NCBI GenBank assembly: GCA_002898735.1
Contig: BEHY01000005.1
Span: 4,772-68,771, forward strand
Length of the DNA stretch: 64,000 bases
DNA from: Candidatus Thermoflexus japonica
Lineage (GTDB): Bacteria > Chloroflexota > Anaerolineae > Thermoflexales > Thermoflexaceae
Direction of reading: 5' to 3'
Of this stretch, positions 36,726 to 61,320 are shown piece by piece (position 1 is the stretch's first letter; every line of letters starts with the position of its first letter). The notes under the pieces were generated by a model. The model worked only from the letters and a program-made list of their open reading frames with translations, did no database searches and had not been told where the DNA came from. A program made the translations under genes and the position numbers.

Positions 36726-37859
36726 TCATTCCAGGCAGGTCGACGGCGGATGGGCTGCCGGCGCATCTCCGGCCAGACCGGATAGCCGTCGTTGCCATTC
36801 CGCAAGGCGCCGCAGGGCTTCCAGCCGCTCCCGATCCCCCAGACGAGCTCGCTCCACAGCCTCGTGGAGGATGCGGATGGAACGATCATAAAGCGCCCGA
36901 TCCACCGGGAACGGGTGACGATCCTTCCCGCCGTGGGCGAAGGCGAAACGCGCCGGATCCCGGAAGGAGAGGGGTGTTCCGTAGAGCAATTCCGCCAGAA
37001 GGGCCAGCGCGCGGACGGTTTTGGCACCCACCTGGGGGAGGCCCAGAAGCTCCAAGAAAGAGGAGGGCTGAGCCTCGTAGGTTTTGACGAAGATCGAGGC
37101 CAGATGGTCCGGGTGGATGTCCTGAAGCAGGATCTCATGGTGGGGGGGAAGGCGCAATCGCTGGAGGCGCTTCAGCTCCTGGAGCAGACGCCATGGCTTC
37201 TCGCGGGAGAGTTCCGCCACCGCCTGGCGCGCGGCCTCCGCCTCCGCGGCCACCATGTTCAGGGGTCGGGTCCGTTCATCGCAGCAGACCGCAGCATGCG
37301 GCTCGCGGACGAAATCCGTCAGCGTCTCGCTGAACCAGTGATAGCGGCGCGCGTAGCGGTTGTTCAGATTCATCCCCTGCTGGATGACGGCCCATCGCCC
37401 CTCCCGATCGAAAACCATCGTATGGTGATAAATCTGATAACCATCCTGGAGCGCATGGTTATCCACCTTCGCCGCCATACGACTGGCATAGACGAGAGCA
37501 GCCGGATCCGCCTGGAGGTATCGGGAGGCCGCCTCGATCTCCTCCGGCGTTCGACGGGAGGCTTTCCCCTTCCCTCCAGCCACGAAGAGCCCCAGATCCC
37601 GCCCCACGTCTTTCAGGGCCTCCTTGAGAGCCCCGCAGACCACCGTGGTCACCCCGCTGGAATGCCAGTCGTAGCCCAGGATGCATCCGAAGGCCTGGAA
37701 CCAGTAGGGGTCGCTCAGGCGGCGGAGCACTTCCGCCGTCCCGAACTCATCCACCAGGACGGTCACGATCTCGCGGGCCAGGGCTGTCATGCGCACGAAC
37801 AACCAGCGCGGGGCCCGTCCTGTATGCAAAGGCAGATCCGCAAAACCGGTGCGGGGCAT
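36726..37859 (-). CDS. DUF763 family protein
   Basis: [32 protein letters not shown] and FAHGGKD. Confidence 0.85.
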
Positions 37860-41085: not shown

Positions 41086-41976
41086 TTACGCCGGGCGCAC
41101 CTCGGTTTGCGCCCACTCCTCAAACAGCGCCACCAGGGCCGAATGATCCAGCTCCCCCTGCCCCCGAGTGACCAGCACCCCGAACCATTCGTGGATCAGA
41201 GCTGTAAGAGGGAGGCTCGCCCCGACGGCACGGCCCAGCCCCAGAGCGATTCGGAGATCCTTGTGGTGCAGGCGAACCCGGAATCCCGGGCGGAAGTTCC
41301 GCTCCAGGATCCGCTGGCCGTGAACCTCCAGGACGCGGCTGCTGGCGAAGCCCCCGAGAAGCGCCTGGCGCACCTTCGCTGGATCCACACCCGCTTTGGC
41401 CGCCAGGGTCAGCGCCTCGCTGATCGCGGCGATGGTGAGAGCCACCACGACCTGGTTGGCCGCCTTGGTTACCTGGCCAGCCCCCGGGCCGCCCATATAG
41501 ACGATATTCCGGCCCATCGCCTGGAAGATCGGGAGGCAGCGCTCAAAGGCCGATGCGTCCCCCCCGACCATGATGGAAAGCGTCCCCTGGATCGCGCCGA
41601 TCTCCCCGCCCGAGACCGGAGCATCCAGCATAGTGATCCCTCGCTCCGCCGCCCGGGCGGCGAGGCGCCGCGCGGCCATCGGATCGATGGTGCTCATATC
41701 GATCACGATCAGCCCTGGCCGTCCGCCCTCGAAGACCCCACCCGGCCCGGCCAGCACCTGCTCCACATCCGGAGTATCGGGGAGCACCGTGATCACCACA
41801 TCGCTGCGTTGCGCGACCTCTTTCGGGGAACCCACCGCCTCCGCCCCCTCTGCGGCCAGCTCCTCCATCGGTGCACGGCTCCGGTTGTAGACCACCAGCG
41901 GATACCCCGCCTTCATCAGGTTGCGGGCCATGGGCTTCCCCATCACGCCCAGGCCGATGAAACCGATGCGCTCCAT
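41086..41976 (-). CDS. garR: 2-hydroxy-3-oxopropionate (tartronate semialdehyde) reductase-like beta-hydroxyacid dehydrogenase
   Basis: GFIGLGVMG, DAPVSGG, GQVTKAANQ and FRPGFRVRLHHKDL. Confidence 0.8.
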   Translation of the reverse strand: MERIGFIGLGVMGKPMARNLMKAGYPLVVYNRSRAPMEELAAEGAEAVGSPKEVAQRSDVVITVLPDTPDVEQVLAGPGGVFEGGRPGLIVIDMSTIDPMAARRLAARAAERGITMLDAPVSGGEIGAIQGTLSIMVGGDASAFERCLPIFQAMGRNIVYMGGPGAGQVTKAANQVVVALTIAAISEALTLAAKAGVDPAKVRQALLGGFASSRVLEVHGQRILERNFRPGFRVRLHHKDLRIALGLGRAVGASLPLTALIHEWFGVLVTRGQGELDHSALVALFEEWAQTEVRPA

Positions 41977-42194: not shown

Positions 42195-42518
42195 TTGTGG
42201 AACCTTCCATCTGGCCTTCCGGATCAGGAGCGCTTTGAGCGGACCGTTCAGCGGCTTCTCCAGGAGCGAGGAGAGGAGATCGAGTTCCTGGTTCTGTTCG
42301 GCTCCATCGCCCGGGGAGACTGTTCCTGGCGCAGCGATGATGATCTCCTCCTGGGCCTCCGGGAGGCGGATGGCCTGCGCCTGATCGATCGAATCCTGCA
42401 TTTCACGCCGCTGACCCCAGGAGGGAGAGTGAGTCCACAGCGCTACACGGGGGAACGGTTCAGCGCGATACGCGCCCATCGGGCGACCTGCGCCATCGCC
42501 TCCTCCAGGGAAGGCTGA
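42195..42518 (+). pseudogene. Degenerate minimal nucleotidyltransferase (MNT), likely a HEPN-MNT relic
   Basis: LVLFGSIARGD...SDDDLLL motif; last 76 nt overlap the iolO 3' end antisense; no intact HEPN partner. Confidence 0.55.
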
Positions 42519-43270
42519 GGCAGCACCTCTGCGGAGAGCCATCCCCCATACCCTGCCTCCCGGAGCGCCTTCAGGACAGACTCGAAATCCAGATGCCCCC
42601 ACCCGGGCGCCCACCGGTTGGAGTCCGCGATATGCACATGGAACAGCCGATCCCCCGCGCGCGCGATGGCCTTCTCCAGGGAGGCCTCCTCGATGTTGGC
42701 GTGGAAAGTGTCCAGCAGCACCCCCACATGGGATCGTCCCACCCGCTCGATGAGGGCCAGCGTTTCCTCGACCGTGTTCAGCAGGTCCGTTTCGTAGCGA
42801 TTGAGAGGCTCCAGCGCCAGCCGAACGGGATACGCAGCGGCCCGATCGGCCAGGTGCGCGATGGCCTCACCCAGCCACGCCAGCGCCCGGCCCCGGTCGA
42901 CGCCGGCCATAAGACGCCCGCGGATCAACCCGATGATCACCAGGCTCCCCCACTCCGCCGCCAGCTCCAGGTGGGCTTCCAGCCGGGCGAGGGCTGCCCG
43001 GCGCACCACAGCATCCGGATGGGTGAGGGACAACCCTTCCTCCACCCACGCCTGACCGGTGCCGATCGCTGGGATCCGCAGCGCATACCGCTCCAGAAGC
43101 GACCGCAGCCGGGGAACCGGAACCATCGCCGGATCCCGCACGGCCAGCTCCACACCGGCATAGCCCAACGCCCGTAGCCGCTCCAGGGTGCGTTCCAGAT
43201 CGTGAACGGCGGCAGCGGCTTCGAAGCGGGTGGGCTGCCAGGAAAGCACAAACGCCAGCGGCCATCCCAT
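42443..43270 (-). CDS. iolO: 5-keto-L-gluconate epimerase-like (xylose isomerase/AP endonuclease 2 fold)
   Basis: AIGTGQA..GLSLTHPD, EPLNRYETD, DTFHANIEE and ADSNRWAPG match Thermotoga IolO as recalled; context supports it. Confidence 0.8.
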   Translation of the reverse strand: MGWPLAFVLSWQPTRFEAAAAVHDLERTLERLRALGYAGVELAVRDPAMVPVPRLRSLLERYALRIPAIGTGQAWVEEGLSLTHPDAVVRRAALARLEAHLELAAEWGSLVIIGLIRGRLMAGVDRGRALAWLGEAIAHLADRAAAYPVRLALEPLNRYETDLLNTVEETLALIERVGRSHVGVLLDTFHANIEEASLEKAIARAGDRLFHVHIADSNRWAPGWGHLDFESVLKALREAGYGGWLSAEVLPQPSLEEAMAQVARWARIALNRSPV

Positions 43271-43274
43271 CCCT

Positions 43275-44096
43275 TCAAACCCCGGCGTAAGCGTTGAACC
43301 CCCCATCGATCGGCACCACCACCCCGGTGACAAAGGCGCTGGCCGGAGAGGCCAGCCAGATCACCGTGCCGATCAGATCCTCCGGGTCTCCGAACCGGCC
43401 CATCGGCGTATGTTCGAGGATCGCCCGGCCCCGCGGGGTCAGGTTCCCCTGCTCATCCAGGAGCAGATATCGATTCTGCCGGGTGAGGAAGAACCCCGGG
43501 GCGATCGCGTTCACACGGATCCTCGGCGAGTATTCCTGGGCCAGATGCACCGCCAGCCACTGGGTGAAATTGCTGACCGCCGCCTTGGCCGCGGCATAAC
43601 CCACCACACGGGTTAAGGGGCGGAAGGCCGCCATGGAGGAGACGTTGATGATGACCCCCTCGCCCGCCTCGACCATCTGTCGGGCGAAAACCTGGCTCGG
43701 GAGGATCGCCCCGCCGAAGAGGTTGAGGGCCACCACCTTCTCCAGGGCCTCCAGCGGCAGATCGAAGAATGAGCGCTCCGGCCCGACCGTGGCCTCCGGC
43801 ATATTCCCCCCCGCCAGGTTGATCAGGATGCTCACCGGCCCCACCTCCCGTCGGACCCGTTCCGCCACCGCTTCGATCTCCGCCCGGTTGAGCACATCCA
43901 TCCGGTAGCCACAAGCTTCCAGGCCCTCCATCTGCAATTCCGCCAGGCGACCCTCCAGGGGGCCGATGTCGGTGAGCACCAGACGGGCTCCCGCCCGACC
44001 CAGGCCTCGAGCGATCGCGCCCGCCAGAACCCCAGCGCCGCCCGTCAGCAACGCGACTTTCCCCTTCAGCGAGAACAGGGTTTCGAGGTAGCTCAT
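43275..44096 (-). CDS. uxuB: SDR family D-mannonate oxidoreductase (fructuronate reductase)
   Basis: TGGAGVL, AGGN, SFFD, YAAAK, GFFLTRQN and DGGFNAYAGV match the Bacillus UxuB/YjmF type as recalled. Confidence 0.75.
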   Translation of the reverse strand: MSYLETLFSLKGKVALLTGGAGVLAGAIARGLGRAGARLVLTDIGPLEGRLAELQMEGLEACGYRMDVLNRAEIEAVAERVRREVGPVSILINLAGGNMPEATVGPERSFFDLPLEALEKVVALNLFGGAILPSQVFARQMVEAGEGVIINVSSMAAFRPLTRVVGYAAAKAAVSNFTQWLAVHLAQEYSPRIRVNAIAPGFFLTRQNRYLLLDEQGNLTPRGRAILEHTPMGRFGDPEDLIGTVIWLASPASAFVTGVVVPIDGGFNAYAGV

Positions 44097-44259
44097 GGCA
44101 CCCCTCCTGAAAGCCTCGTCATCGGATAACAGCCCGCCCGCCATGGTCGGTAGATCGATCCGCCCCCTCTTCCCCGCTCGTGTGGGGAAGAGGAGGGGTC
44201 AGGGCGTTCGTTCCTCGGAAAAAGGGGCGGTCCCTTCCCGGCAGCCCCGAGAACCCCGC

Positions 44260-45678
44260 TCAATCCAGCCACTCCGTATGGAAAACACCAGGCCGATCGA
44301 TCCGCTCATAGGTGTGGGCTCCGAAGGCATCCCGCTGGGCCTGGATGAGGTTGGCCGGCAACCGGGAGCGGCGCATGGAGAGCACATAATCCACCGCCGT
44401 GCTCAGCGCAGGCATTGGGACCCCTGCCTCGAAGGCCCATCGCAAGACCCGTCCGGCCGCTGGCAGCCGCTGCTGGAGCTCAGCCCGGAATCGCGCGCTG
44501 AACAGCAGGTGCGGATCCTCCGGGTCCTCCCGAACGATCTCCCTCAGGAACCCCAGCCAGCGGGCGCGGATAATGCAACCGGCCCGCCAGACCCGCAGGA
44601 CCTCCGCCCGATCCGTTCCGTAGCTGTAGACCCGCGAAGCTTCGTGGAGCAACCAGAGCCCCTGAGAGAAAGCCGCCAGCAGCATCAGATTGAGCGCGGC
44701 CTCCAGGTCCGCCAGGACGCCCTCGGAAAAAGGCCCCAGACGCTGATCCGGCCACGGGAACCCGGCCCCAATTCGCTCCCGATCCGTCTTGAAGTAGGAA
44801 AGGGTGCGCGCGATCACCGCCACGGTGAGGGTGGGAGCGGGCACGCCCAGCTCCAGCGCGCTCTGGGCTGCCCACCGCCCCGTCCCCTTCTGCTCCGCGC
44901 GATCCATGATCCGCTCCACCAGCGGATCCCCGCTCTCCGGATCCCGGTATCGCAGGACGCGGGCGGCCAGCTCCGTGAGGAAGGCGTTCAACGCCCCCTC
45001 GTTCCAGCGCTCGAAGGTCTCCGCAATGGCTTCGACGGGCATCCCCAGGGCCGTCTTCATAAAGTCATAGGCCTCGGCGATGCCCTGCATGAAGGCGTAT
45101 TCGATGGCGTTATGCACCATCTTCACGTAGTGGCCGGCCCCACCCCGCCCCATATAGGCGCAGCATGGGCCCTCCTCACTCTGCGCCGCAATCCGGATGA
45201 ACATATGCTCGACCATGGCATAGGCTTCGGCGGACCCACCGGGCATGATGGAAGGGCCCAGCAGGGCCCCTTTCTCCCCCCCGCTGATCCCCACCCCCAG
45301 GAACCGGATCCCGTGGGCGGCCAGATTCTGCATGCGTCGCTCGGTATCCGCGTAATGGGAGTTTCCTCCATCCATCACCAGATCCCCCGGCTCCAGGAGG
45401 GGAAGCAACGCCTCGATCACCTGATCCACCGCCGACCCGGCCTGGACCATCAGCAGGATCCGGCGAGGGCGTTCCAGGCACCGCACGAATTCCTCCAGGG
45501 TGTAGGCGGGGATGATCGGCTCATCCCGCACGCGATCCCGCAGAAACCCCTCGGTCCGCTCCGGGGTCCGGTTGTAGACACACACCCGGAACCCGTGCCG
45601 GGCGAAATTCAGGGCCAGATTCTGGCCCATGACCGCCAGACCGATGATCCCGATCTCGCCACCGTTACGCATACGCAT
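44260..45678 (-). CDS. gnd: 6-phosphogluconate dehydrogenase, decarboxylating (long form)
   Basis: GLAVMG, VKMVHNAIEY, QKGTGRW and QAQRDAFGAHTY. Confidence 0.95.
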   Translation of the reverse strand: MRMRNGGEIGIIGLAVMGQNLALNFARHGFRVCVYNRTPERTEGFLRDRVRDEPIIPAYTLEEFVRCLERPRRILLMVQAGSAVDQVIEALLPLLEPGDLVMDGGNSHYADTERRMQNLAAHGIRFLGVGISGGEKGALLGPSIMPGGSAEAYAMVEHMFIRIAAQSEEGPCCAYMGRGGAGHYVKMVHNAIEYAFMQGIAEAYDFMKTALGMPVEAIAETFERWNEGALNAFLTELAARVLRYRDPESGDPLVERIMDRAEQKGTGRWAAQSALELGVPAPTLTVAVIARTLSYFKTDRERIGAGFPWPDQRLGPFSEGVLADLEAALNLMLLAAFSQGLWLLHEASRVYSYGTDRAEVLRVWRAGCIIRARWLGFLREIVREDPEDPHLLFSARFRAELQQRLPAAGRVLRWAFEAGVPMPALSTAVDYVLSMRRSRLPANLIQAQRDAFGAHTYERIDRPGVFHTEWLD

Positions 45679-47163
45679 TCACCCCCCAAAGATCTCCTGG
45701 TGACGGCGGAACGCCTCCTCCAGATCCCCCATCAGGGCCTGGAAGCGCTCGAACTGCCGCTCATAGATCGGAACCCAATCCGGCACCGGTTCGTAGATCC
45801 GCACAGGCACCTCCCGGACCGCTGACCATAGATCCGGGGCTGCGCCGATGGCGACCCGAGCCAGGGCGGCGCTTCCTGTTAGAGCCGGCTCCGCGATCTC
45901 CGGAACCTCAACCGGGGTCTGGAACACGGAGGCCAGGATGCGCATCCAGAGGGCTGAACGGGTTCCCCCGCCGCCTGCCCGAAGCCGCAATGGGGACAGA
46001 TCGTTGGCCCGCAGCGCCTCCAGGATCAACCGGAGGGCGAACGCCACCCCTTCCATGGCGGCCCGGGTGAGATGCCCCCGGTGGTGATGAGCGCGCAGGC
46101 CGAAGATCACCCCAGAGGCCAGATGGCTGATCCCCGGATAACGCTCGCCGGTCAAAAACGGAAGGAACAGAAGCCCGGTCGGCCCTCCGACGGCCTCGGC
46201 CAGGGCCTCCTGCTCCGCATACGCCAGACCCAGCACCGCCTCCTGCAACCACTGCAGGACGCTTCCCGCATTGTTGATGGCCCCGCCAGGGAACCAGCGA
46301 CCCCCGGCCAGATAATACGTCTGCAAGCGCATCTGCGGGAAGCGATCCAGGATCGGGCGATCGGCGACCCGGCGGATCATGGCCGTAGTCCCCAGGTTCA
46401 TCGCCCCGATGCCGGACGCGACGGCCCCCAATCCCAGGCCCACCGCTCCCCCATCATAGACCCCCGCGATCACCTCCACCTCCGGCCGGAGACCGAGGGC
46501 TTCGGCGGCTTCGGGGCGCAGGGAACCCATCCGGGTTTCCGGAAGGACCACCTCCGGCATGCGCTCCTCGGTGAGCTCCACGAGCGCCAGGATCTCCGGA
46601 TCCCAGCGCAGGGTATGCACGTTCATCAGCTGGGTCGCCGTGGCCAGGGAAGGCTCCGTCAGGAACCTTCCCAGAAGACGGAAGAGAATGTAATCCTTCG
46701 CCCCCACAAACCACCGGGCCCGGTGGAAGACATCGGGCCGGCGAACCCGGATCCATTCCAGCTTGGCCAGCGGATATTGAAAGAGGGGCGGACATCCTGT
46801 CCGCTGGTAGATCCTCCCGATATCCATGCGGGCCAGCAACCCCGGGAACGTCTCCTGGGGCCGGGTGTCGAGGAGGGTCATCAGCCCCATCAGGGGGCGA
46901 CCCGCCGCATCCACCGGCATGAGGCTGAGCTGATAGGCGGAAAGGACGATCCACCGGATCTCATCCGACGCCTCTCCGACCACCTCCCGCACGGCGGCCA
47001 CCAGCCGATCCCACAGGACCTCCGGATCATGCTCCGCCCGCCCGGTCTCATCCCGGGCCAGCGGAAGCGCCCGGATGGCCACCCCGTGGAGCTGTCCATC
47101 CCATCCGAAGCGACCGGCCTTCAGATGGGTCGTGCCGATATCCACGGCAAGGATTTGCGCCAT
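45679..47163 (-). CDS. gntK: FGGY family kinase, gluconokinase-like
   Basis: DIGTT, NLGTTAMIR, FLPFLTGER and GGGTRS; directly upstream of gnd. Confidence 0.75.
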   Translation of the reverse strand: MAQILAVDIGTTHLKAGRFGWDGQLHGVAIRALPLARDETGRAEHDPEVLWDRLVAAVREVVGEASDEIRWIVLSAYQLSLMPVDAAGRPLMGLMTLLDTRPQETFPGLLARMDIGRIYQRTGCPPLFQYPLAKLEWIRVRRPDVFHRARWFVGAKDYILFRLLGRFLTEPSLATATQLMNVHTLRWDPEILALVELTEERMPEVVLPETRMGSLRPEAAEALGLRPEVEVIAGVYDGGAVGLGLGAVASGIGAMNLGTTAMIRRVADRPILDRFPQMRLQTYYLAGGRWFPGGAINNAGSVLQWLQEAVLGLAYAEQEALAEAVGGPTGLLFLPFLTGERYPGISHLASGVIFGLRAHHHRGHLTRAAMEGVAFALRLILEALRANDLSPLRLRAGGGGTRSALWMRILASVFQTPVEVPEIAEPALTGSAALARVAIGAAPDLWSAVREVPVRIYEPVPDWVPIYERQFERFQALMGDLEEAFRRHQEIFGG

Positions 47164-47272
47164 ATCCTTCGGCCTCGAATTGGCTTTCCGGAGCGGGGCG
47201 GCGGATCACCCGGGGAGGCTCCCAGGGCGGGTCGATGGCCTTCGCGGCCAGCCCGGCCCCAGGCGGAGCGGG

Positions 47273-48325
47273 TTACCGAGAGGGAGCTACCCCACCCCCG
47301 GAGCCCGCAGGCGATTGCCGGGCGAACGCCCGGGCACGCGAGAGGACTTCGGGGTTCACCACTTCCTCCGGGATCTCCCCCCGGAGCACCCGCTCCACAT
47401 CGGAGATCACCTTCTCCCCCATACGCCGCAGCGTCTCGTGGGTGTAAGCGGCGATGTGGGGGACGATCAGCACGTTCGGGAAACGGAGGAGAGGATGATC
47501 CGGGCCGATGGGCTCCCCTTCCACCACGTCCAGAGCGGCCCCGGCCACGCGTCCGGATTCCAGCGCGGCGATCAGCGCCGCCTCGTCGATGAGCTCCCCC
47601 CGCGCCGTGTTCACCAGGATCACGCCCGGCTTCATCTTCCTGAAGGCCTCGTGGGAAAGCATATGGAAGTTTTCCTCCGTGAGGGCCGCGTGCAGAGAGA
47701 GGATGTCCGCCTCCCGAAGCAGGGTCTCCAGATCCACGGGCTCCGCCCCGCTCTCCCGGATGGCTTCGGAGGGCACCCCCGGATCGAAGGCCAGGACCCG
47801 GGCATGGAAGCCGTGCGCCAGGATCTCCCCCACCCGGCTTCCGATGTTCCCGAAGCCGATCAGCCCCACGGTCTTGCCCCGGAGCTCCCATCCGACGAAG
47901 GCCGCCCGCTCGGCCCAGCGTCCCTCCCGCGCGGCAGCGGCGGCCTCGGGGATCCGGCGGAGGAGCGCGAGCAACAGGGCGATCGTGAGCTCCGCCACGG
48001 CGTCCCGCTCCATCCAGGGGGTGACGCGGGTCACCAGCACCCCGTGGGCGGTTGCGGAAGGGAGGTGAATGTTATCCACCCCGATGCCATGGCGGGCGAT
48101 CAGCCAAGTCTCATCCTTGTGGGCGAAGAACTCCGGGCCGAACCGCGGCGTGACGCTCACGACGAGGATCTGGAAGCCGTGGAGCGCTTCAGCCAGGGCC
48201 CGGCCATCCATCTGCGGGGGAACGTCGATTCGCCGGACCTCCCCCAGGGCAGCCAGGCGCTCCAGATGTTCCGGGAAGTAGCGGCCGAAGCTGCTGGAGT
48301 TGACGATGGCGATGCGCAGGCGCAT
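47273..48325 (-). CDS. D-isomer-specific 2-hydroxyacid dehydrogenase
   Basis: RHGIGVDN, GLIGFGNIG, NTARG, LDVVEGEP and PHIAAY; distinctive N-terminal VNSSSFG. Confidence 0.9.
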   Translation of the reverse strand: MRLRIAIVNSSSFGRYFPEHLERLAALGEVRRIDVPPQMDGRALAEALHGFQILVVSVTPRFGPEFFAHKDETWLIARHGIGVDNIHLPSATAHGVLVTRVTPWMERDAVAELTIALLLALLRRIPEAAAAAREGRWAERAAFVGWELRGKTVGLIGFGNIGSRVGEILAHGFHARVLAFDPGVPSEAIRESGAEPVDLETLLREADILSLHAALTEENFHMLSHEAFRKMKPGVILVNTARGELIDEAALIAALESGRVAGAALDVVEGEPIGPDHPLLRFPNVLIVPHIAAYTHETLRRMGEKVISDVERVLRGEIPEEVVNPEVLSRARAFARQSPAGSGGGVAPSR

Positions 48326-48374: not shown

Positions 48375-49850
48375 TCAGCCGGACGGGCCGGGATCGATAC
48401 GGGCGCCTCGTCCGTCTCCAGCGGATTTTAGCAGGATTTCCAGATGGCGTTCCAGGTTCTCCCGGATGGCGGCATCGTGTTCCGCCTTGTGGCTCTCCAG
48501 GAGCTCCCGGATCGCAACCCCGCGCTCGCGCAGCAACACGCCATAGGAGATATGGAAGAGCTGCCGCACCGCACGGTCGGCCAGCGCCGCTTCCGGATCG
48601 CCGGGAAGGGCGGAGGGAAGGTCCTCCGGCCGCAACGCGATGGGGTAATCCCGGCGGCTCTCCTCCAGATGCGCGCGGGCGATGGCGTAAAGCTCGGCGA
48701 AGAAGGGCGGGTGCACACGGGCGATGACCCGCACCGCCTGCAACCAGGTGGTCCCGGAGGTCTTCACATGGAAGCAGCCACCGGTCGCCTCCCGGAAGAT
48801 GGGCAGGATGCGGAACTTCTCGCTTCCGGAATGGAGGCTGAGGCGATGGCCCCCGAAGGCCCGCGCGACCGCCGCATGCAGGGTCACGGCGCGGGCGAAG
48901 CGCGCCACGTCTCCCTCATAATCGACGGCCTTCTCGAAGATCCCCGGGAACCGGGGGGCCAGGCTCCAGAGGGCGACTCCTCGCCGCTGCAGATACACGG
49001 CGATGAAGGCGTGGGCTTCCGGGGTCGTTTCCTCCTCCGTCTCATCGACCGACACCTCCAGATCGGCGTCGATTCCCTGATCGCGAAGGATCCCGGCCCC
49101 GCGAACCACGTCCTCCAGGGCCGGCGCATAGCGGCAGGCCGCCGCCTGCAAAGCGGATTCCTGGAGGATCCATGGTCCCTCCGGCGTCTCGAGGCGGCGC
49201 CCGGCCAGCTCAGCGACCACGGATCGGGCCAGAGCGGGGAGCGCCTCCCATGGGCAGGGGCCCCGGGCCAGCGCCCGACGGAGGTCAAAGGTGTAGAGGG
49301 AGTAACCGGCTGCGGCTGCGGCGCGGAGCTGTTCCTCCTCCTGAAGGTGATCGGCGTCCGCTCCGAAGGGACCGGTGTAGCCAGCCTCCAGCACGCCCCA
49401 TACCGCATCCAGCAGGACAGCCTGGAAATCCCGGCCGGTGCGAGCAAGCTCCCGGGGCGACTGCTGAGCCAGCACGGGGAAGACCGGGTATCCCCGCAGG
49501 GCCGCGATCTGCGCAGCGGTCGCCATCCCCAGGCGATCCCCAGCCCCGAAGGACGCCGGCCGGTCGCAGCGCTGGGGAACCAGCGACAGCAGAGACCGCA
49601 GCGCAAGATAGTTGTCCCACATCCAGGGATACAGATTCACCCGATAGCGGCCCACGGGGATCGGCTCAGGGAGCAGCGGAGCAATCCGAAGCGGGAGCTC
49701 GGCCTCTCCCACCCACCCCACGGCCTTCCTCCCGGGACCGCGCGCTGCGAACCACCAGCCCTGTCCGGGGATCTCTCGGAACGAGCCAGGCAGGAGCTGG
49801 AACCCTTTTTCCTGGAGCGCATCCCCCAAGGCCTCCCCAGGGAAGTCCAT
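48375..49850 (-). CDS. uxaE: Tagaturonate/fructuronate epimerase
   Basis: SFGAGDRLG, AQQSPRE, GADADHL, SVDET, SLHSGSEKF and HVKTSGTTWL. Confidence 0.9.
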   Translation of the reverse strand: MDFPGEALGDALQEKGFQLLPGSFREIPGQGWWFAARGPGRKAVGWVGEAELPLRIAPLLPEPIPVGRYRVNLYPWMWDNYLALRSLLSLVPQRCDRPASFGAGDRLGMATAAQIAALRGYPVFPVLAQQSPRELARTGRDFQAVLLDAVWGVLEAGYTGPFGADADHLQEEEQLRAAAAAGYSLYTFDLRRALARGPCPWEALPALARSVVAELAGRRLETPEGPWILQESALQAAACRYAPALEDVVRGAGILRDQGIDADLEVSVDETEEETTPEAHAFIAVYLQRRGVALWSLAPRFPGIFEKAVDYEGDVARFARAVTLHAAVARAFGGHRLSLHSGSEKFRILPIFREATGGCFHVKTSGTTWLQAVRVIARVHPPFFAELYAIARAHLEESRRDYPIALRPEDLPSALPGDPEAALADRAVRQLFHISYGVLLRERGVAIRELLESHKAEHDAAIRENLERHLEILLKSAGDGRGARIDPGPSG

Positions 49851-51251
49851 TCATGCCCCCTTCGAGCGAAATACCTGCGCGGCGAGATCTGGCCGATCCG
49901 TGGTTACAGCATCCACTCCCACAGCCTTCAAGGCCTTCAGGGCAATGGGTTGTTCCTCATGCCAGGAGATAATCCCCAGGCCGCTTGCGTGAACTCGCTT
50001 TACCCAGGTGGAAGTAAGTTGCTCTTCCGGCCGTGCGCTCCGTCCCTCCCAACATGGGTGAACATAATGGGCATCCGCCGCCTCAGCCAGCGCGATGGGA
50101 TCTGTTTCCAGGCCCTCAAACATGATGGATCGGTAAGCCCATGGAAGCACCCGCCGAACAGCGTGCAGGGTCACCGGCTCCCGCGCGCCGAAGATCACAA
50201 AGGGCAACATCCCGGTCTGCTGAACAATAAGGGCAGCAGGCTCCACGGCCTCCGGGGCCTTGAGGTCCAGGTAGGCCCCGAGACCGACCTCCCGGCATAA
50301 CTCCAGCGCTTCTGCCAGTGTGGGGATCTCCGGCCGGGCGATCCGAAGCTCGCTCAGGAAAACGTCCCCAAGGGGCCGCAGGGTTCCATCCAGCCAGCGG
50401 ACCTCCGCATCGTGGTGCAAGACCGGGATCCCATCGGCCGTCACCTGCACGTCCAGCTCGACCGCATCGGCATCATCCATGGCAGCCTGCCGGATAGCAG
50501 CCAGGGTGTTCTCGGGAGCCTTTGCAGAGGCGCCCCGATGGGCAATGATGAGAAGATCCCGTTCCTCCTCCGGGATATCGCGCTCCAGGCGCTCGATGAG
50601 CGTTTGCAACCGCCGGGGGATCTCAAATAGCAGCTCTCGGATCGGGCGGAGGAGTTCCGGGGAGATCTCGAGACGGCGATCGAAGATCCAGGTCGGTGTG
50701 AAAGCCTTGCGGCGCAAATAAGTTCGCGCCAGCCGATCAGTCTGAGGGGATTTAATGGCTGGAAAGCCATAGAGAGGATTCAGCCAGATCCCTCCCGCCC
50801 CGGCCAAGCGTGTGCACTCCCGCAGAGTCCGTGCGGATCGTTCCTGAAACCACGTGGGGCTCGGTGCCATCGCATGCTTGCCGGGCTCCACATACAGGAT
50901 AGGATGTCCATCCTCCAGGGGAATGCGGCCATCTGCAACCATCTCCCGATAGGTGCCGTGCCAGGAGGCCTCCACCCGGACGACCATACCTTCCCTATCT
51001 AAATACACCCAGACGTGCTCCAGCTCATAGAGATGACCGATGTCAGCATCCCACTCAATGGCGTACTCGATCACCTGACAGGCAGGAGGTTCCACCATCA
51101 ACCGGCGGGGGAAAGTCGGAGAGAAAGTCCCCCGATCCAATACCGCATAGCCTACCCCTTCGACCCGGAAAGGCTCCGCCCGGTCCAGGAGGAGAACGGG
51201 GGTATGTCGGAGCGCCAGATGATGGAGATCTGAGCCTCGATCCCAGCTCAT
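49851..51251 (-). CDS. Fusion of an uncharacterised N-terminal domain (about 230 aa) and a glycerophosphodiester phosphodiesterase
   Basis: GDPD motifs IAHRGAS, PENT, ELDVQ and LHHD; N-terminal domain with GHLYELEH, ASWHG and GKHA. Confidence 0.85.
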   Translation of the reverse strand: MSWDRGSDLHHLALRHTPVLLLDRAEPFRVEGVGYAVLDRGTFSPTFPRRLMVEPPACQVIEYAIEWDADIGHLYELEHVWVYLDREGMVVRVEASWHGTYREMVADGRIPLEDGHPILYVEPGKHAMAPSPTWFQERSARTLRECTRLAGAGGIWLNPLYGFPAIKSPQTDRLARTYLRRKAFTPTWIFDRRLEISPELLRPIRELLFEIPRRLQTLIERLERDIPEEERDLLIIAHRGASAKAPENTLAAIRQAAMDDADAVELDVQVTADGIPVLHHDAEVRWLDGTLRPLGDVFLSELRIARPEIPTLAEALELCREVGLGAYLDLKAPEAVEPAALIVQQTGMLPFVIFGAREPVTLHAVRRVLPWAYRSIMFEGLETDPIALAEAADAHYVHPCWEGRSARPEEQLTSTWVKRVHASGLGIISWHEEQPIALKALKAVGVDAVTTDRPDLAAQVFRSKGA

Positions 51252-51252
51252 C

Positions 51253-52350
51253 CTACGAACGCCCGATCAGGACTCCGGTGTGAGGATCGAACAGGTAAAG
51301 ATGTGCAGGATCGAAATGGAGGCCGACGATGTCTCCGACCTTCCAGGGGAAGGGTGGAGGAACCAGGGCCCGCAACCGGAGGCTTCCGATGCGCAGATTA
51401 ACCAGCACATCCCGCCCCAACGGTTCGATCACGTAGACCTCAGCCCGGAGCTCACCCTCCTCCGAGGGAGCCAGGCGAACATGCTCCGGGCGAACGCCAA
51501 GGATCAATCGGTCCCTATCCCGGACGGCCTCAGCCCACGATTTCAACCCCTCCGGAAGAGTTACATGCCATTCAGGGCCAGTGAGGCGAAGGGCGCTCCC
51601 ATGAACCGTTAAAGAGCCTTCCAGGAAGTTCATCGGCGGGCTGCCGATGAATTCCGCAACGAAGAGGTTTGCCGGGCGGGTGTAAAGGGCCTCCGGGGTG
51701 TCGAACTGCTGGAGGACGCCCTGATTGAGCACGGCGATGCGGTCAGCCATGGTCATTGCTTCCACCTGGTCATGGGTCACGAAGATCGTGGTGATGCCCA
51801 ATTCCTTTTGAAGGCGCTTGATCTCAGCGCGGGCCAGGAGCCGAAGGCGGGCGTCCAGGTTCGAAAGCGGCTCATCAAGCAGCAACAGATCTGGCTCTTT
51901 CGCGAGGGCGCGGCACAGGGCCACCCGCTGCTGCTGGCCGCCGGAGAGCTGACCCGGGCGTCGATCGAGGAGCTCCTCGATCTGAAGCAGCTGGGCCGCC
52001 GCCACCACCCGTCGATGGATCTCAGCACGGGGCATACGCCGCAGGGTCAATGGGAAGGCGATGTTTTCATAAACGGTCATGTGGGGATAGAGAGCGTAAC
52101 TCTGAAATACCATCCCGATGTTACGCTCCCTGGGGGGCAGATCATTAACCACCTTCCCATCAAACCGAATCCAACCATGCGTCGGTCGGTAGATGCCCGC
52201 CACGGTCAGGAGGACCGTGGTCTTACCGCATCCAGAGGGCCCGAGAAGGGCGACAAATTCTCCATCCATGATCTCGAGGCTCAGGTCCTGCACTGCCACC
52301 ACCTTGCCGAAACGCTTGGTCAGGCGCTCAATGCTCACCCGCATTTGCAC
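51253..52350 (-). CDS. CUT1 ABC transporter ATPase (MalK/InoK-like)
   Basis: GPSGCGKT, LSGGQQQRV, LLLDEPLSNLD and TOBE domain. Confidence 0.95.
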   Translation of the reverse strand: MQMRVSIERLTKRFGKVVAVQDLSLEIMDGEFVALLGPSGCGKTTVLLTVAGIYRPTHGWIRFDGKVVNDLPPRERNIGMVFQSYALYPHMTVYENIAFPLTLRRMPRAEIHRRVVAAAQLLQIEELLDRRPGQLSGGQQQRVALCRALAKEPDLLLLDEPLSNLDARLRLLARAEIKRLQKELGITTIFVTHDQVEAMTMADRIAVLNQGVLQQFDTPEALYTRPANLFVAEFIGSPPMNFLEGSLTVHGSALRLTGPEWHVTLPEGLKSWAEAVRDRDRLILGVRPEHVRLAPSEEGELRAEVYVIEPLGRDVLVNLRIGSLRLRALVPPPFPWKVGDIVGLHFDPAHLYLFDPHTGVLIGRS

Positions 52351-52408
52351 TCCCCCTCTTCCAGGAACACTTGTATGTTTGGTGAGCGCTTTTCTGGCAA
52401 AGTTTAAC

Positions 52409-53242
52409 TTAACCTTTTACCCCTCCGGCATAAATCTGCAACAGATATCGCTGGGTGAACAGGAAGAACAAAAGCACCGGCAGGACATAGAACAGGCCCG
52501 CAGCGGCGATCACCCCGTAATTCACGAACAGGATTTCCCCTGCCCCACCCGCGGTGACGCTGCGAATGAAGACGGAGAGGGTCCAGTTGCGCGCGCTGGG
52601 CATGTAAATATAGGGGAGCAGGAATTCATTCCATCCCAGGACAAAGGCAAAGACCGCTAAGGCTGCGATGCCAGGGCGGACCATCGGGATCATCACCCGA
52701 CGCCAGGCCTGGAGGCGGGAGCAACCATCAATCAACGCGGCCATCTCGATATCCCACGATACGTTGTCGAAGAACCCTTTCATCACCCAGACCCCCAGCG
52801 GAAGCTCCAGGGCAGTTTTCACCAGGGCCACCCCGATTAAGGTGTCGTAAAGCCGTAAAGCCCGCAGGACATAGAAGATGGCAATCAACAGGGTGATGCT
52901 GGGGAAGGCATGAAGGACCAGGACCAGCATCATGAAAAAGCGGCGGCCGCGAAAAGAGAGCCGGGAGAGCGCATAGGCAGCAGTGGAGGAGATCAGCAAC
53001 AGGATCACGGTGTAACCGCCCGCCAGCAAAGTGGAATTCAACGCCGCCACCCAGATGCTGGGACGGTTCCCCCACGGAGTGAACAGGAAGCTCCAGTTCG
53101 ACAGAGTGAAGCCCTCCGGGATTAACCCATGAGTACGGGGGGAGAAGGCCCCAATGAACAGCCAGGCATATAAGAGCAGCAGCGGCAGGGAGAGAGCTGC
53201 CAGGATCAGATAGGGCGTGCCCTTCTTGATCCAGTTTCCCAT
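52409..53242 (-). CDS. CUT1 ABC permease (MalG/InoG-like)
   Basis: EAA loop IEMAALIDG; WNEFL. Confidence 0.92.
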   Translation of the reverse strand: MGNWIKKGTPYLILAALSLPLLLLYAWLFIGAFSPRTHGLIPEGFTLSNWSFLFTPWGNRPSIWVAALNSTLLAGGYTVILLLISSTAAYALSRLSFRGRRFFMMLVLVLHAFPSITLLIAIFYVLRALRLYDTLIGVALVKTALELPLGVWVMKGFFDNVSWDIEMAALIDGCSRLQAWRRVMIPMVRPGIAALAVFAFVLGWNEFLLPYIYMPSARNWTLSVFIRSVTAGGAGEILFVNYGVIAAAGLFYVLPVLLFFLFTQRYLLQIYAGGVKG

Positions 53243-53243
53243 C

Positions 53244-54233
53244 TTACACCCCTTCGATCTTTGGCTCGCTCATCATCTCCTGAAATCGGAAAACCCGCAG
53301 ATAAATCACCGAAGCCACCACCCCGATGGCCACCAGGACCGCGGCCAACGCAGCCCCGAACCCGAATTGCACGTTGCCAAAGTAATTGGAAAGGGCCTGA
53401 TGATAGGCATAAAGGGCCCAGACCTCCGTCCGATAAAACCCGGGCCCACCCTCCGTGAGCAGCAGGATATATTCAAACGAGGCCAGGAGGGAAAGCGTCT
53501 GATAAGCCGTCACGAACATGATCGGCCATCGGATCAGCGGCAGGATGATCCGTCGGATGATCTGCCAGGTGGTGGCTCCATCCACCTGGGCCGCCATGAT
53601 GTAATCCGGTGGGATCGCCTTGATGGCCGAGGTGAAGATGATCATCCCCAGTGAGGCCCCGACAAATCCATTGGCGAGAATAATCACTCCCCACGGCTGC
53701 GTGGTCAACCAGTTGCGCGAAGGAAGCCCGAGCGGACCCAGAACCTGATTCAGGGTCCCGAAGGGAGCAGGAGCCGTCGCCCAGGTCCATAATAACGCGT
53801 AGACAACGGAAGGGGTGACGCGAGGCAGCAACCAGAGAGCTCGAAAGAGAACCCCTACCCGCTCCTCGATATGTGTGGTTAACAGAGCGAGGATGAGGCC
53901 CATTCCGACGTTAAAAGTTAACGTTGCGGAAACATAGAGAAGTGTGTTCTGGAGGATCCGTGAAGTATAGGGGCTGCGCAGGATCCGCAAATAATTACTA
54001 AATCCGATGATCTCGGTTCGGCCCAGGGTCGCCACGCTCATATTGGTCATGCTGATCCAGAAGGTGAGAAGGACAGGAGCGACAAAAAACAGGAGCACAA
54101 TCAGGGCCGCCGGACTCAAAAAGAGGAGGGCGGCCACTCCCTGTTTGGAGACCCCGGGCCGAATCCGCAGGAGGGGGAGGGAAAATCCCCTCCCCCTCTT
54201 CGCCACTTCCAGCTCCCGTTCCACCTGCCTCAT
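53244..54233 (-). CDS. CUT1 ABC permease (MalF/InoF-like)
   Basis: EAA loop YIMAAQVDGA; six TM segments. Confidence 0.92.
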   Translation of the reverse strand: MRQVERELEVAKRGRGFSLPLLRIRPGVSKQGVAALLFLSPAALIVLLFFVAPVLLTFWISMTNMSVATLGRTEIIGFSNYLRILRSPYTSRILQNTLLYVSATLTFNVGMGLILALLTTHIEERVGVLFRALWLLPRVTPSVVYALLWTWATAPAPFGTLNQVLGPLGLPSRNWLTTQPWGVIILANGFVGASLGMIIFTSAIKAIPPDYIMAAQVDGATTWQIIRRIILPLIRWPIMFVTAYQTLSLLASFEYILLLTEGGPGFYRTEVWALYAYHQALSNYFGNVQFGFGAALAAVLVAIGVVASVIYLRVFRFQEMMSEPKIEGV

Positions 54234-55675: not shown

Positions 55676-55703
55676 GGCAACCTCCCTCTTTTTTGTGGGG
55701 GAT

Positions 55704-55878
55704 TTTAACTTGACATTGTTAAATTCGGGCTCTTTGACCTCTCCCAACTGCCAAGGACGGCCTTGTAGCGCAGGCTGAAAGCCTGCGCCGCGGGCGCAAG
55801 CCCGCGTTCACCGTCTTATACGGCGGAAGCCCGTGCTACGTCACGGCGGCACGGCAAATCTAACAATATCAAGTTAAT
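55704..55878 (-). repeat. Structured intergenic element: 23-bp AT-rich inverted repeat enclosing GC-rich hairpins and REP-like GTAG units
   Basis: 55705-55727 pairs with 55855-55877 (20 Watson-Crick plus 3 G-U pairs on the minus strand); internal hairpins at 55768-55788, 55789-55806, 55811-55823 and 55831-55846. Confidence 0.65.
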
Positions 55879-55942
55879 TGCCCCTCTTTAACTCGCAGTG
55901 AGACCAGCTGGATGGTTTCGTTAAAGAAGAACGAAAAAATTT

Positions 55943-56917
55943 TCACATCGGGTAGTGCAGCTCATACAGGCTCCGCCAGCCAGGCTCGAAGGGCATCTTG
56001 AGGTAGGGCTCCAGCATCTCCCGCTCCCGCTCCGTCACCCCCTCCAGCGGCGGCAGCTTCCCCGGCGGGAAGGCCTCCAGGATGTCCCGAACCAGTTTCT
56101 CCAGGTAATCGAGCAGCTGCTCCACCCCCGGCTTCGCCTTCTCGGCGCTGGCCAGGGTCGCCTTCCCCACCACGCCCGGCTGGTAGGCCTTCACCTCAAT
56201 CGGCCGCAGGCCCACCTGCGCATACCAGGCGATGGGCTTGCGCAGCAGATTCCCCGCCTTGTCGATGTGCTCGCTATCCGTGGGCAGGAAACTGTAAGGC
56301 TCCGTGTCCACCGCATCCTCCATGCGGATGAACTCCGGGAACAGGGCCAGGCTCCAGCTGGTCTCCACCTCATCCCCATGGATGAAATGGGTCTCGTAGG
56401 GGCCGCCTTCGGACTTCAACTTGAAGTGATCGGGGATCGCGTGATACCAGTTGACGTTGACGATGATCGCCGGCACCTTGTAGGTCTTGGCGAAGCGGTG
56501 GATGGCGATGGGGATCACATATTCCTGCCCGTGGCCGTTCAGGATGATCTGCTTGCGGAATCCCGCGTTCCAGAACCCGGCGATGATCGCCGTCAGCATC
56601 CCGACGAACACGTCCTCGGGCACCACGATGGTCCCCGGCATCCCCATGTGGTGATACGGGTGGGAGCCGAACCACAGCGGCTGGCTCACCGTGCACCCTG
56701 TCCGCAGGGCCACCTGCTCCGCCATCCGGGTGACCAGGAAGACGTCCTCCCCGTAAGGCGCATGGGGGCCATGGGCCTCCGTGGCCCCGACCGGGATGAT
56801 GATCAGATCGTTCTGCTTCAGGCGCTCCATGACCTGTTTGCCGGTCATGTTCTGGAAGTAAATCCCCGTCGGCCGATCCATATGGCCGCCTTCCGGTGGG
56901 ATCTGCCACTTGCTCAT
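55943..56917 (-). CDS. iolN: Creatininase-family hydrolase, 3-dehydro-scyllo-inosose hydrolase-like
   Basis: RPTGIYFQNMT, PVGATEAHGPH, NGHG and HGDEVETS; resembles Thermotoga IolN as recalled. Confidence 0.8.
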   Translation of the reverse strand: MSKWQIPPEGGHMDRPTGIYFQNMTGKQVMERLKQNDLIIIPVGATEAHGPHAPYGEDVFLVTRMAEQVALRTGCTVSQPLWFGSHPYHHMGMPGTIVVPEDVFVGMLTAIIAGFWNAGFRKQIILNGHGQEYVIPIAIHRFAKTYKVPAIIVNVNWYHAIPDHFKLKSEGGPYETHFIHGDEVETSWSLALFPEFIRMEDAVDTEPYSFLPTDSEHIDKAGNLLRKPIAWYAQVGLRPIEVKAYQPGVVGKATLASAEKAKPGVEQLLDYLEKLVRDILEAFPPGKLPPLEGVTEREREMLEPYLKMPFEPGWRSLYELHYPM

Positions 56918-61312: not shown

Positions 61313-61320
61313 CCCCAGGT

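Follow-up and report, generated by a model that had tools for sequence, protein, structure and literature searches.

Genes of the locus

A 64-kb stretch of contig BEHY01000005.1 of Candidatus Thermoflexus japonica (the window; all positions are those of the whole stretch) carries between 41 and 63.4 kb a string of genes, on the minus strand unless stated, that is best explained from the families of their products as one catabolic locus leading from inositol to ribulose 5-phosphate. Near its centre lies a gene (47273–48325) for a protein of the D-2-hydroxyacid dehydrogenase family (2HADH; PF02826 and PF00389), followed by a gene for an FGGY kinase (45679–47163). Because this pair recurs in many phyla, 2HADH is a strong candidate for an enzyme step without a gene, the one that joins mannonate to 6-phosphogluconate (6PG). 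The pair is flanked by uxaE (48375–49850), encoding the tagaturonate/fructuronate epimerase (PF16257, 384 bits), and by gnd (44260–45678), encoding the decarboxylating 6-phosphogluconate dehydrogenase (6PGDH) with 596 bits against a cut-off of 413 for NF006765 and 583 against 427 for TIGR00873. The PDB matches of UxaE are tagaturonate/fructuronate epimerases (best about 1e-77; 9lhw, 8e-77; 6il9, 1e-68). After gnd comes a fructuronate reductase of the short-chain dehydrogenase/reductase (SDR) type (43275–44144; PRK08277, 351 bits against 281), a D-mannonate oxidoreductase analogous to UxuB/UxaD. Its second-best family is 'gluconate 5-dehydrogenase', and its true start is probably near 44096, as the gene has 273 amino acids in identical public contigs. 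A sequence-only reading of this DNA had already described these five genes as a cluster, and all five lie on the minus strand at or near the positions it gave, with uxaE just outside the interval that it had delimited.

The genes around this core encode the conversion of inositol to D-tagaturonate. IolM, the scyllo-inosose 3-dehydrogenase of the zinc-dependent alcohol dehydrogenase (Zn-ADH) family (58046–59248; NF041097, 584 bits against 450), IolN, the 3-dehydro-scyllo-inosose hydrolase with the creatininase fold (55943–56953; NF041098, 543 against 245), and IolO, the 5-keto-L-gluconate 4-epimerase (42443–43333; NF041099, 324 against 300), all score above their equivalog cut-offs and together form the signature of the Thermotoga-type inositol pathway. 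The start of iolO is probably near 43270, as the called gene has 275 amino acids. The reaction of IolO, from 5-keto-L-gluconate to D-tagaturonate, has been described (PMC12632266). Because IolM, IolN and IolO are present, D-tagaturonate is read here as a product of inositol and not of pectin, and UxaC was not found in the 64-kb window. An inositol 2-dehydrogenase of the IolG type (GFO_IDH_MocA) was likewise not found in the window. Since this enzyme is not present, a second zinc-dependent dehydrogenase, an IolM paralogue (57004–58029; NF041097, 219 bits, under the cut-off; ADH_N and ADH_zinc_N), is the candidate for the first oxidation of inositol, non-orthologous to IolG. The inositol locus (41086–63383) is one continuous gene string with the genes for UxaE, the kinase and Gnd, and the same combination occurs in a locus of the Synergistota (L052).

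Pfam and NCBIfam scans were run on the open reading frames (ORFs) with a coding-like GC content at third codon positions, and on other long ORFs picked by hand, across the 64 kb. Among these plausible ORFs none had a UxuA, PfkB/KdgK, 2-keto-3-deoxy-6-phosphogluconate (KDPG) aldolase or LarA domain, in agreement with the earlier statement that uxuA, kdgK, eda and larA are missing from the window. The locus thus has enzymes for the way to mannonate and, at its end, Gnd, both assigned by homology and context; the unit between mannonate and 6PG is inferred.

The chemistry of that unit follows from the stereocentres. Derivation of the configurations gives 2S,3R,4S for 5-keto-L-gluconate, 2S,3S,4R,5R for D-mannonate and 2R for 6-phospho-D-gluconate. 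C2 stays S as far as mannonate and is R in 6PG, and therefore an inversion at C2 is obligatory. The assigned enzymes leave C2 untouched, so that the pathway still lacks one C2 inversion and one phosphorylation. In formal terms, 5-keto-L-gluconate is moved into the enantiomeric series centre by centre, at C4, C3 and C2. The gap between the manno and the gluco series, which the sequence-only reading had pointed out, is therefore real, and all other enzymes of the operon can be assigned. By these family assignments 2HADH is the only candidate within the cluster for the C2 inversion and its only unassigned enzyme; as had been proposed, a dehydrogenase occupies the functional slot of the epimerase GntE.

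The dehydrogenase and its partner kinase

The 2HADH protein has the two-domain fold of its superfamily (PF02826, 210 bits; PF00389, 75 bits). Its best NCBIfam match is phosphoglycerate dehydrogenase (PGDH; TIGR01327) with 266 bits against a cut-off of 454; the SerA equivalog NF008759 scored 174 against 404 and the GhrB equivalog NF011938 scored 175 against 492. The LarA fold (PF09861) was not found in the protein, which is therefore no GntE by fold. The homologues bear generic names only, and the closest structures are at most 38% identical (top PDB match, 1wwk). In an alignment of 84 homologues the triad R242, E271 and H290 and the glycines G157, G159 and G162 of the GxGxxG motif are invariant, and Asp181 marks the protein by sequence as NAD-type rather than NADP-type. 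The same 84 sequences share further invariant residues that are peculiar to the subfamily, namely N9, S10, F13, G14, H79 (in RHGIG), E106 and R140. The usual V-x-N-x-P substrate loop is replaced by V-T-(K/R)-V, and the N-terminal loop reads IVNS(S/K)SFG throughout. The window version of this loop is IAIVNSSSFG, and the VNSSSFG motif named in the sequence-only reading is found at residues 8–14. These features suggest that 2HADH represents a new, unannotated subfamily of the D-2-hydroxyacid dehydrogenase fold.

The AlphaFold model of 2HADH has a mean predicted local distance difference test score (pLDDT) of 91.6 and the canonical fold. Foldseek gave TM scores of 0.8–0.87 to glyoxylate reductases, McyI and PGDH, with archaeal glyoxylate/hydroxypyruvate reductases as the nearest; the PDB titles of McyI mention 'prebound NAD'. 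With its triad, GxGxxG motif, Asp181 and confident model, the protein looks catalytically competent. In the model the Ser/Gly-rich loop joins beta1 (residues 4–8) to alpha1 (18–25) of the substrate-binding domain, and a beta1-alpha1 loop is the typical phosphate site in alpha/beta domains. R140 aligns near a residue that we take to be the inter-subunit Arg135 of human PHGDH. The loop and R140 would both be compatible with a substrate that has a further anionic group. The window protein also has a C-terminal tail of about 15 residues rich in Gly, Ala and Ser (47273–47320) that most homologues lack, and residues 338–348 have a pLDDT below 50. A gap of 109 bp separates the 2HADH and FGGY genes in the window, compared with overlapping genes in other genomes.

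The partner kinase matches the gntK_FGGY and XylB families equally at 268 bits, under the cut-off of both (648.55 for the GntK equivalog TIGR01314), and its top PDB match is the gluconate kinase 3gbt (4e-62). It shares 43% identity with the Pseudothermotoga partner kinase and 23% with a second, GntK-like kinase in a Fervidobacterium locus. Neither the GntK of Thermotoga maritima nor any other Thermotoga protein was among the 120 best matches of the Pseudothermotoga partner kinase. By sequence the protein is a hexonate-type FGGY kinase of a separate small clade dedicated to 2HADH, and it is proposed to be a D-mannonate (or gluconate) 6-kinase. The Fervidobacterium islandicum locus (L044, 9986–20007) holds two FGGY hexonate-type kinases, the partner of 2HADH and the GntK-like one, together with Eda and Gnd, and also ORFs of 504 and 321 amino acids that match no family or PDB entry.

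Occurrence of the module in other genomes

Proteins 44–92% identical to 2HADH were found in 80 genome loci, of which all ORFs were clustered and the recurrent neighbours annotated (comparison loci are labelled in the form L001). Counts refer to 28 well-covered bacterial loci without a phosphotransferase system (PTS) and to 11 loci with one. In the loci without PTS the FGGY kinase gene follows that of 2HADH in 23 of 28, often with an overlap of a few bases, and Gnd (16/28), UxaE (17/28) and a fructuronate reductase (15/28) are frequent neighbours. The sequence-only reading had asked whether 2HADH occurs together with fructuronate reductase and Gnd, and the comparison loci strongly bear this out. 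The complete module of UxaE, 2HADH, FGGY kinase, Gnd and fructuronate reductase was found in Chloroflexota (Thermoflexus and Anaerolineae), Dictyoglomota, Bacillota (Caldanaerobacter), Atribacterota and Synergistota, in two gene orders and with protein identities of only 33–64%. Clustering that returns across so many phyla, and in either of two orders, is far beyond chance. The Dictyoglomus locus consists of the five module genes only, and the Synergistota locus keeps two Zn-ADHs, IolN and IolO. In Thermoanaerobacter and Caldanaerobacter the SDR is swapped for a long-chain, fructuronate-reductase-like enzyme of the mannitol dehydrogenase family. UxaC joins the module in three loci (L013, L015 and L035), and in one of these, from Thermoanaerobacter sp. 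A7A (L035), the order is DeoR-2HADH-FGGY-Gnd-UxuB-like-UxaC followed by a substrate-binding protein and permeases. Judged by its gene families, this locus would hold a full set for glucuronate to ribulose 5-phosphate only if 2HADH and the kinase bridge mannonate to 6PG. The 2HADH-FGGY pair stands alone in Pseudothermotoga (L001) and in two Bdellovibrionota loci (L081 and L083).

A second setting was found in Firmicutes, among them Youngiibacter, Niallia, Erysipelotrichaceae, Lacticaseibacillus nasuensis, Clostridium perfringens and Enterococcus, in which 2HADH is encoded beside a mannose-type PTS. An intact FGGY kinase is present in only 1 of the 11 PTS loci compared with 23 of the 28 others (Fisher p = 4.4e-5). 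In two Thermoanaerobacter contigs with two mannose-type PTS systems a short way downstream, the FGGY gene is broken, in L004 (10996–11633) into fragments of 111 and 82 amino acids and in L005 (10996–11630) with a fragment of 67 amino acids; it is intact in L033 and L035. All 11 PTS loci encode a 6PGDH in the long or the short form, the latter with 413 bits against a gnd_rel cut-off of 297. In a neighbour-joining tree the 2HADHs from PTS contexts interleave with those from kinase contexts, and therefore the function is probably the same in both and the substrate is probably a 6-phosphate. Overall, the comparison suggests that 2HADH and the kinase (or the PTS) form a conserved unit linked to 6PG-using enzymes.

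The operons of C. perfringens (L086, 9001–16482) and Enterococcus (L087, 9001–16601) lie behind an RpiR regulator and encode the short 6PGDH, 2HADH, an iron-containing alcohol dehydrogenase (Fe-ADH), the mannose-type PTS components IIC, IID, IIB and IIA, an unknown protein of about 291 amino acids, a UxuA homologue, Eda and a HAD phosphatase. If these assignments hold, a manno-specific UxuA homologue and a gluco-specific 6PGDH behind one PTS need a link between the manno and gluco series, and the two operons may lead to KDPG without Edd, starting from a hexonate 6-phosphate imported by the PTS.

The Thermoproteota loci (L047–L084; for example L067, 4297–12513) have the 2HADH motif in the form IVNSKSFG. 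The archaeal gene is always preceded by one of the DHDPS family (KDG-aldolase/NanA-like), and the loci often add an FGGY kinase, two generic SDRs, a TRAP transporter and an HTH_10 regulator. From its genes this setting looks like a different pathway for the same 2HADH clade.

Comparison with known systems

The T. maritima operon gnd-uxaRED-gntEK has been described (PMC3750489), and the activity of its GntE2 as a LarA-type D-mannonate/D-gluconate 2-epimerase has been demonstrated (PMC7583248). The sequence-only reading had cited the LarA-type GntE of Thermotoga, correctly by these two reports. T. maritima and the window have in common IolM, IolN, IolO, UxaE, an SDR fructuronate reductase, an FGGY hexonate kinase and Gnd, and in both mannonate must become 6PG. 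They differ in the enzyme between, which is the LarA-fold, nickel-pincer GntE in T. maritima and a 2HADH-fold NAD enzyme in its place in the window. The window order uxaE-2HADH-FGGY-gnd-SDR, set against gnd-uxaRED-gntEK, puts 2HADH in a GntE-like genomic position. The window also has an FGGY kinase of another clade, the Zn-ADH paralogue instead of a GFO-type IolG, and an added insertion with genes for a GDPD-domain protein and a CUT1 transporter. The pathway logic is best described as known from T. maritima and from Lactobacillus suebicus, and the protein proposed for the C2 step as new, a putative non-orthologous replacement.

In the galacturonate pathway of L. suebicus, cell extracts convert mannonate to 6-phosphomannonate and further to 6PG; the genes were not identified, and the authors' candidate for the epimerase was a LarA homologue (PMC6978723). 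The predicted sequence in the window, mannonate to 6-phosphomannonate to 6PG to ribulose 5-phosphate, is the same, and both organisms have UxaE, fructuronate reductase, a GntK-like kinase and 6PGDH. By analogy, 2HADH and its kinase are candidate genes for the '6-phosphomannonate 2-epimerase' and 'mannonate kinase' of L. suebicus. An L. suebicus orthologue of 2HADH was not among the listed homologues of the L. nasuensis orthologue, and no proteomic match was present in the supplement of PMC6978723. L. suebicus and Thermoflexus may use different proteins.

The 2HADH-family enzymes GhrB, TkrA and KguD share with 2HADH the fold and the triad; their site of action is C2 of a hexonate or hexonate 6-phosphate and their product has the D-gluconate form, and in both cases a kinase partner and then 6PG metabolism are involved. 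From fold and context it is plausible that 2HADH, too, yields the gluconate form by reduction of 2-keto-D-gluconate or its 6-phosphate. Unlike these enzymes, 2HADH is NAD-type (Asp181) and not NADP-type, has the motifs IVNS(S/K)SFG, RHGIG and V-T-(K/R)-V, receives from its pathway the 2S epimer and not a 2-keto acid, and has an FGGY instead of a PfkB kinase. Two other 2HADHs, SerA and PdxB, have phosphorylated D-2-hydroxy acids as substrates, which they oxidise at C2. By sequence, SerA is one of the nearest relatives (36–38% identity); it differs from 2HADH, which has no ACT or ASB domain and a catabolic gene context. A Val/Ala of 2HADH aligns with a residue that is presumably the phosphate-binding Arg54 of human PHGDH. 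Stereocentres are also inverted by paired oxidation and reduction in the fungal D-glucuronate pathway, which runs from L-gulonate through 2-keto-L-gulonate, L-idonate and 5-keto-D-gluconate to D-gluconate. That fungal pathway, the subject of PMC4870679 and PMC5814732, differs from the window in having separate oxidising and reducing enzymes, free acids, a eukaryotic host and other intermediates.

Proposed pathway and alternatives

In the proposed pathway the Zn-ADH paralogue would carry out a first and IolM a second oxidation of inositol, and IolN would open the ring to give 5-keto-L-gluconate. IolO would invert C4 to give D-tagaturonate, UxaE would invert C3 to give D-fructuronate, and the SDR would reduce C5 to give D-mannonate. 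The FGGY kinase would then phosphorylate D-mannonate at C6, 2HADH would interconvert 6-phospho-D-mannonate and 6-phospho-D-gluconate with NAD(H) through 2-keto-6-phosphogluconate, and Gnd would convert 6-phospho-D-gluconate to ribulose 5-phosphate. That 2HADH supplies the manno/gluco step at C2 through a 2-keto intermediate is judged probable, with a good deal of doubt remaining. The narrower version in which the kinase comes first and 2HADH acts on 6-phosphomannonate, as an NAD-based replacement of the nickel-pincer GntE, has somewhat less than an even chance. The sequence-only reading had mentioned phosphorylation of mannonate first as an alternative; it is now the better supported order, in view of the replacement of the FGGY kinase by the PTS (1/11 against 23/28) and of the L. 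suebicus extracts (PMC6978723). C2 inversion, C5 reduction and phosphorylation may also follow one another in a different order; inversion at the level of fructuronate/5-keto-D-gluconate or of free mannonate would be chemically equivalent. The least secure part is how C2 would be inverted. A 2HADH that performs both half-reactions, through relaxed stereospecificity at C2 or flipped binding, is favoured. That it is a true 2-epimerase, a single redox-neutral enzyme that holds its NAD and interconverts 6-phosphomannonate and 6PG, the first in its fold, is a possibility that we rate as rather unlikely. Partial precedents exist. LarA enzymes work through transient oxidation to the 2-keto acid, and LarA homologues were in a 2024 survey the only proteins known for mannonate/gluconate epimerisation (PMC11770544). 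A 2-ketoaldonate reductase, not necessarily of the 2HADH family, oxidises both D-gluconate and D-mannonate, the latter with 31-fold lower efficiency (PMC12994016, Table 5). Two other readings of single enzymes were rejected. If 2HADH reduced 6-phosphofructuronate at C5, neither the SDR nor the C2 problem would be accounted for, and IolN giving 5-keto-D-gluconate directly would make IolO, UxaE and 2HADH superfluous.

Several observations weigh against the proposed role of 2HADH. D-2-hydroxyacid dehydrogenases make or oxidise 2R acids and mannonate is 2S, so that either a permissive enzyme or an L-specific partner is needed; no L-specific oxidant is conserved in the kinase-type loci. We know of no member of the family that oxidises a 2S (L) hydroxy acid efficiently or that epimerises, and the catalytic set of 2HADH, as read from its alignment, is the ordinary one-sided Arg/Glu/His. 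The redox inversion by 2HADH suggested in the sequence-only reading is partly supported, by the gap, the slot and the co-occurrence; a D-specific enzyme accounts only for the reduction to the 2R product, and a conserved partner for the oxidation was not found in the operon. The Firmicute PTS operons usually hold a second dehydrogenase, a 2HADH paralogue or an Fe-ADH, which hints at a two-enzyme redox couple without a counterpart in the window. The simplest of these operons, in Lacticaseibacillus nasuensis (L078), consists of the PTS, 2HADH and the short 6PGDH; uptake of 2-ketogluconate followed by a plain 2-keto-6-phosphogluconate reductase would explain it equally well. UxuA, Edd and Gnd were not found in the archaeal neighbourhoods, for which the proposed pathway gives no account. 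A gluconate kinase as the nearest structure of the partner kinase leaves epimerisation followed by GntK standing. The check for LarA in the neighbouring loci is indirect and indicative only, as it combines ORF clustering with a listing of Pfam matches. No unannotated neighbour family of LarA size (at least 380 amino acids) recurred in at least three loci by ORF clustering, LarA and UxuA were not among the Pfam matches listed for 64 unassigned ORFs from kinase-type loci, and one candidate ORF (L044, 15470–16984) had no PDB relative. In addition, the listed public data sets that carry the window sequence are hot-spring DNA metagenomes only.

The most serious alternative is a redox inversion by two enzymes, in which 2HADH is a D-specific, NADH-dependent reductase of 2-keto-(6-phospho)gluconate, of the KguD or TkrA kind, and another enzyme oxidises the 2S carbon of (6-phospho)mannonate. 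This is the conventional form of the redox inversion suggested in the sequence-only reading. The oxidant would be an unlinked enzyme, or else the fructuronate reductase with the pseudo-C2-symmetric manno chain bound the other way round. By derivation, chain reversal makes C2 and C5 of D-mannonate stereochemically equivalent, and a C5 dehydrogenase acting at C2 is conceivable. This explanation keeps the known stereochemistry of the family, has GhrB/TkrA-type enzymes and a 'probable 2-ketogluconate reductase' among the detectable relatives of 2HADH, and accommodates both the second dehydrogenase of the Firmicute PTS operons and the L. nasuensis operon, which fits the use of 2-ketogluconate. It is nevertheless held to be unlikely, though a serious contender. 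No extra oxidoreductase is conserved in the kinase-type loci, and the Thermoanaerobacter sp. A7A and Dictyoglomus loci are without one; moreover, an SDR and a long-chain enzyme both fill the reductase slot, and moonlighting shared by the two is unlikely. Another alternative is a side entry, with 2HADH and the kinase only salvaging external 2-ketogluconate to 6PG and mannonate handled elsewhere by GntE or by UxuA, KdgK and Eda. Pseudomonas KguK and KguD, a kinase and a 2HADH-family reductase, form an established route from 2-ketogluconate to 6PG and set the precedent, and the loci with the 2HADH-FGGY pair alone (L001, L081 and L083) would suit it. Against such salvage, at least five phyla have the pair between uxaE and gnd and without a dedicated transporter, and Gnd in inositol and hexuronate operons would be purposeless unless these pathways end in 6PG, as in T. 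maritima. UxuA and LarA were not recurrent near kinase-type loci among the matches listed, and 2-ketogluconate would be an unlikely nutrient for anaerobic thermophiles. We regard this side entry as improbable.

A route over unphosphorylated acids is also given only a small probability. Here 2HADH would act on mannonate (or fructuronate) and an ordinary gluconate kinase would follow, as with GntE and GntK; in a variant, fructuronate would become 5-keto-D-gluconate, which the SDR would reduce to D-gluconate on the way to 6PG. This is the order of T. maritima, whose GntE2 uses free D-mannonate, and it agrees with the nearest structure and the NCBI name of the kinase, both gluconate kinase, and with 'gluconate 5-dehydrogenase' as the second-best family of the SDR. 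However, an acid imported by the PTS is already phosphorylated and the same 2HADH clade is retained there, the kinase is far under the GntK cut-off and distinct from the GntK-like kinase that shares one locus with its relative, and L. suebicus extracts phosphorylate first. The last alternative dispenses with epimerisation. Decarboxylation by 6PGDH destroys the C2 stereocentre, and Gnd might accept 6-phosphomannonate directly, leaving 2HADH for other tasks such as hydroxypyruvate/glycerate metabolism with a tartronate-semialdehyde-reductase-like (TSR-like) enzyme, for which the locus has a gene (41086–41976). The nearest structures of 2HADH, glyoxylate/hydroxypyruvate reductases, point the same way. 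Gnd is, however, a canonical, equivalog-level 6PGDH, the TSR-like gene is not conserved with the module beyond Thermoflexus, and the tight, often overlapping pairing of 2HADH with the FGGY kinase across phyla would go unexplained, which makes this alternative very improbable.

If 2HADH does act with its kinase as proposed, genes would be available for two orphan activities, 6-phosphomannonate 2-epimerase and mannonate kinase, which were described in 2020 (PMC6978723) and have no genes in the literature searched. Once mannonate can be turned into (6-phospho)gluconate, hexuronates and inositol have access to the pentose phosphate pathway at no net cost in redox equivalents, which is directly relevant to the fermentation of pectin-rich waste (PMC6978723). 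The known route through LarA/GntE needs the nickel-pincer cofactor and three maturation enzymes; the link proposed here would be nickel-independent and widespread, and a self-contained pair of NAD enzyme and kinase would be easier to move into production hosts. A function would also be given to a large unannotated dehydrogenase subfamily of thermophiles, gut Firmicutes (Clostridium perfringens, Enterococcus, Streptococcus suis) and Thermoproteota. In Firmicutes, 2HADH would lead from 6PG to 6-phosphomannonate and, with the UxuA homologue and Eda, complete an Edd-independent Entner-Doudoroff branch for gluconate. If 2HADH is a true epimerase, for which there is a real chance, the reaction type would be new for a textbook fold.

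Transport, the inserted segment and flanking genes

A LacI-family regulator (62298–63383; NCBIfam matches like CytR, PurR and RbsR, all under the equivalog cut-offs) stands at the head of the locus, as in other Thermoflexus loci (cluster c15). It is followed by a ribose-type sugar ATP-binding cassette (ABC) transporter (59245–62301; Peripla_BP_4, BPD_transp_2 and ABC_tran) made up of a substrate-binding protein (61321–62301), a permease (60096–61154) and an ATPase (59245–60099). The top NCBIfam match of the binding protein is the substrate-binding protein of rhizopine catabolism (264 bits against a cut-off of 420), and from these matches the transporter probably imports inositol or an inositol derivative.

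An insertion of 6.1 kb (49824–55941), characterised by Pfam and NCBIfam matches, separates iolN from uxaE, with a GC content of 0.596 against 0.67 in the flanks. It encodes a CUT1 ABC transporter, with a substrate-binding protein (54230–55747), two permeases (53244–54233 and 52409–53242) and an ATPase (51253–52350), and a GDPD-domain phosphodiesterase of 466 amino acids (49851–51251), the N-terminal 230 residues of which had no family match. The insertion is not present in four related Thermoflexus loci (L006, L007, L010 and L014), a 399-bp ATPase-like remnant is retained in a fifth locus (L008), and the arrangement is identical in independent hot-spring Logan contigs (L088 and L089). From its gene content it is probably an acquired front end, and its products would feed a glycerophosphodiester such as glycerophosphoinositol into the locus. 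Orthology of the window GDPD protein to a GDPD neighbour in Dictyoglomus was considered and rejected (32% identity over 124 amino acids), so that the association is convergent at most.

The TSR-like gene, for a beta-hydroxyacid dehydrogenase (TIGR01505, 392 bits against 341), forms the end of the locus. It is present in L010 and at the same position in L006, there as an ORF of the Gnd/HIBADH cluster, and was not found in the Dictyoglomus or Synergistota loci. Tartronate semialdehyde is a retro-aldol fragment of a 2-ketohexuronate, and the TSR-like gene shares the locus with the aldolase-like UxaE. UxaE as an aldolase that supplies tartronate semialdehyde to the TSR-like enzyme was considered and rejected, as conservation of the module does not extend to the TSR-like gene.

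The proteins of other Thermoflexus genomes are 86–92% identical to the window 2HADH, and the window DNA is 89–96% identical to that of Candidatus Thermoflexus tengchongensis. A promoter and terminator scan of the locus gave a signal no better than chance. The other plausible ORFs identified in the window have housekeeping roles (among them RpoB, PNPase, SerRS and the His operon). The 466 bp that separate iolO from the TSR-like gene contain a small plus-strand ORF (42195–42518) with a weak match to a Polbeta nucleotidyltransferase (PF18765, E = 2e-5). Gene calls in L088 and L089 include this ORF as well; it may encode the MNT component of a toxin-antitoxin system, or it may be spurious. A DUF763 protein (36726–37859; 446 bits) is encoded between the genes for ribosomal protein S15 and PNPase and the upstream flank of the locus, and it lies beside the locus in L010 as well.

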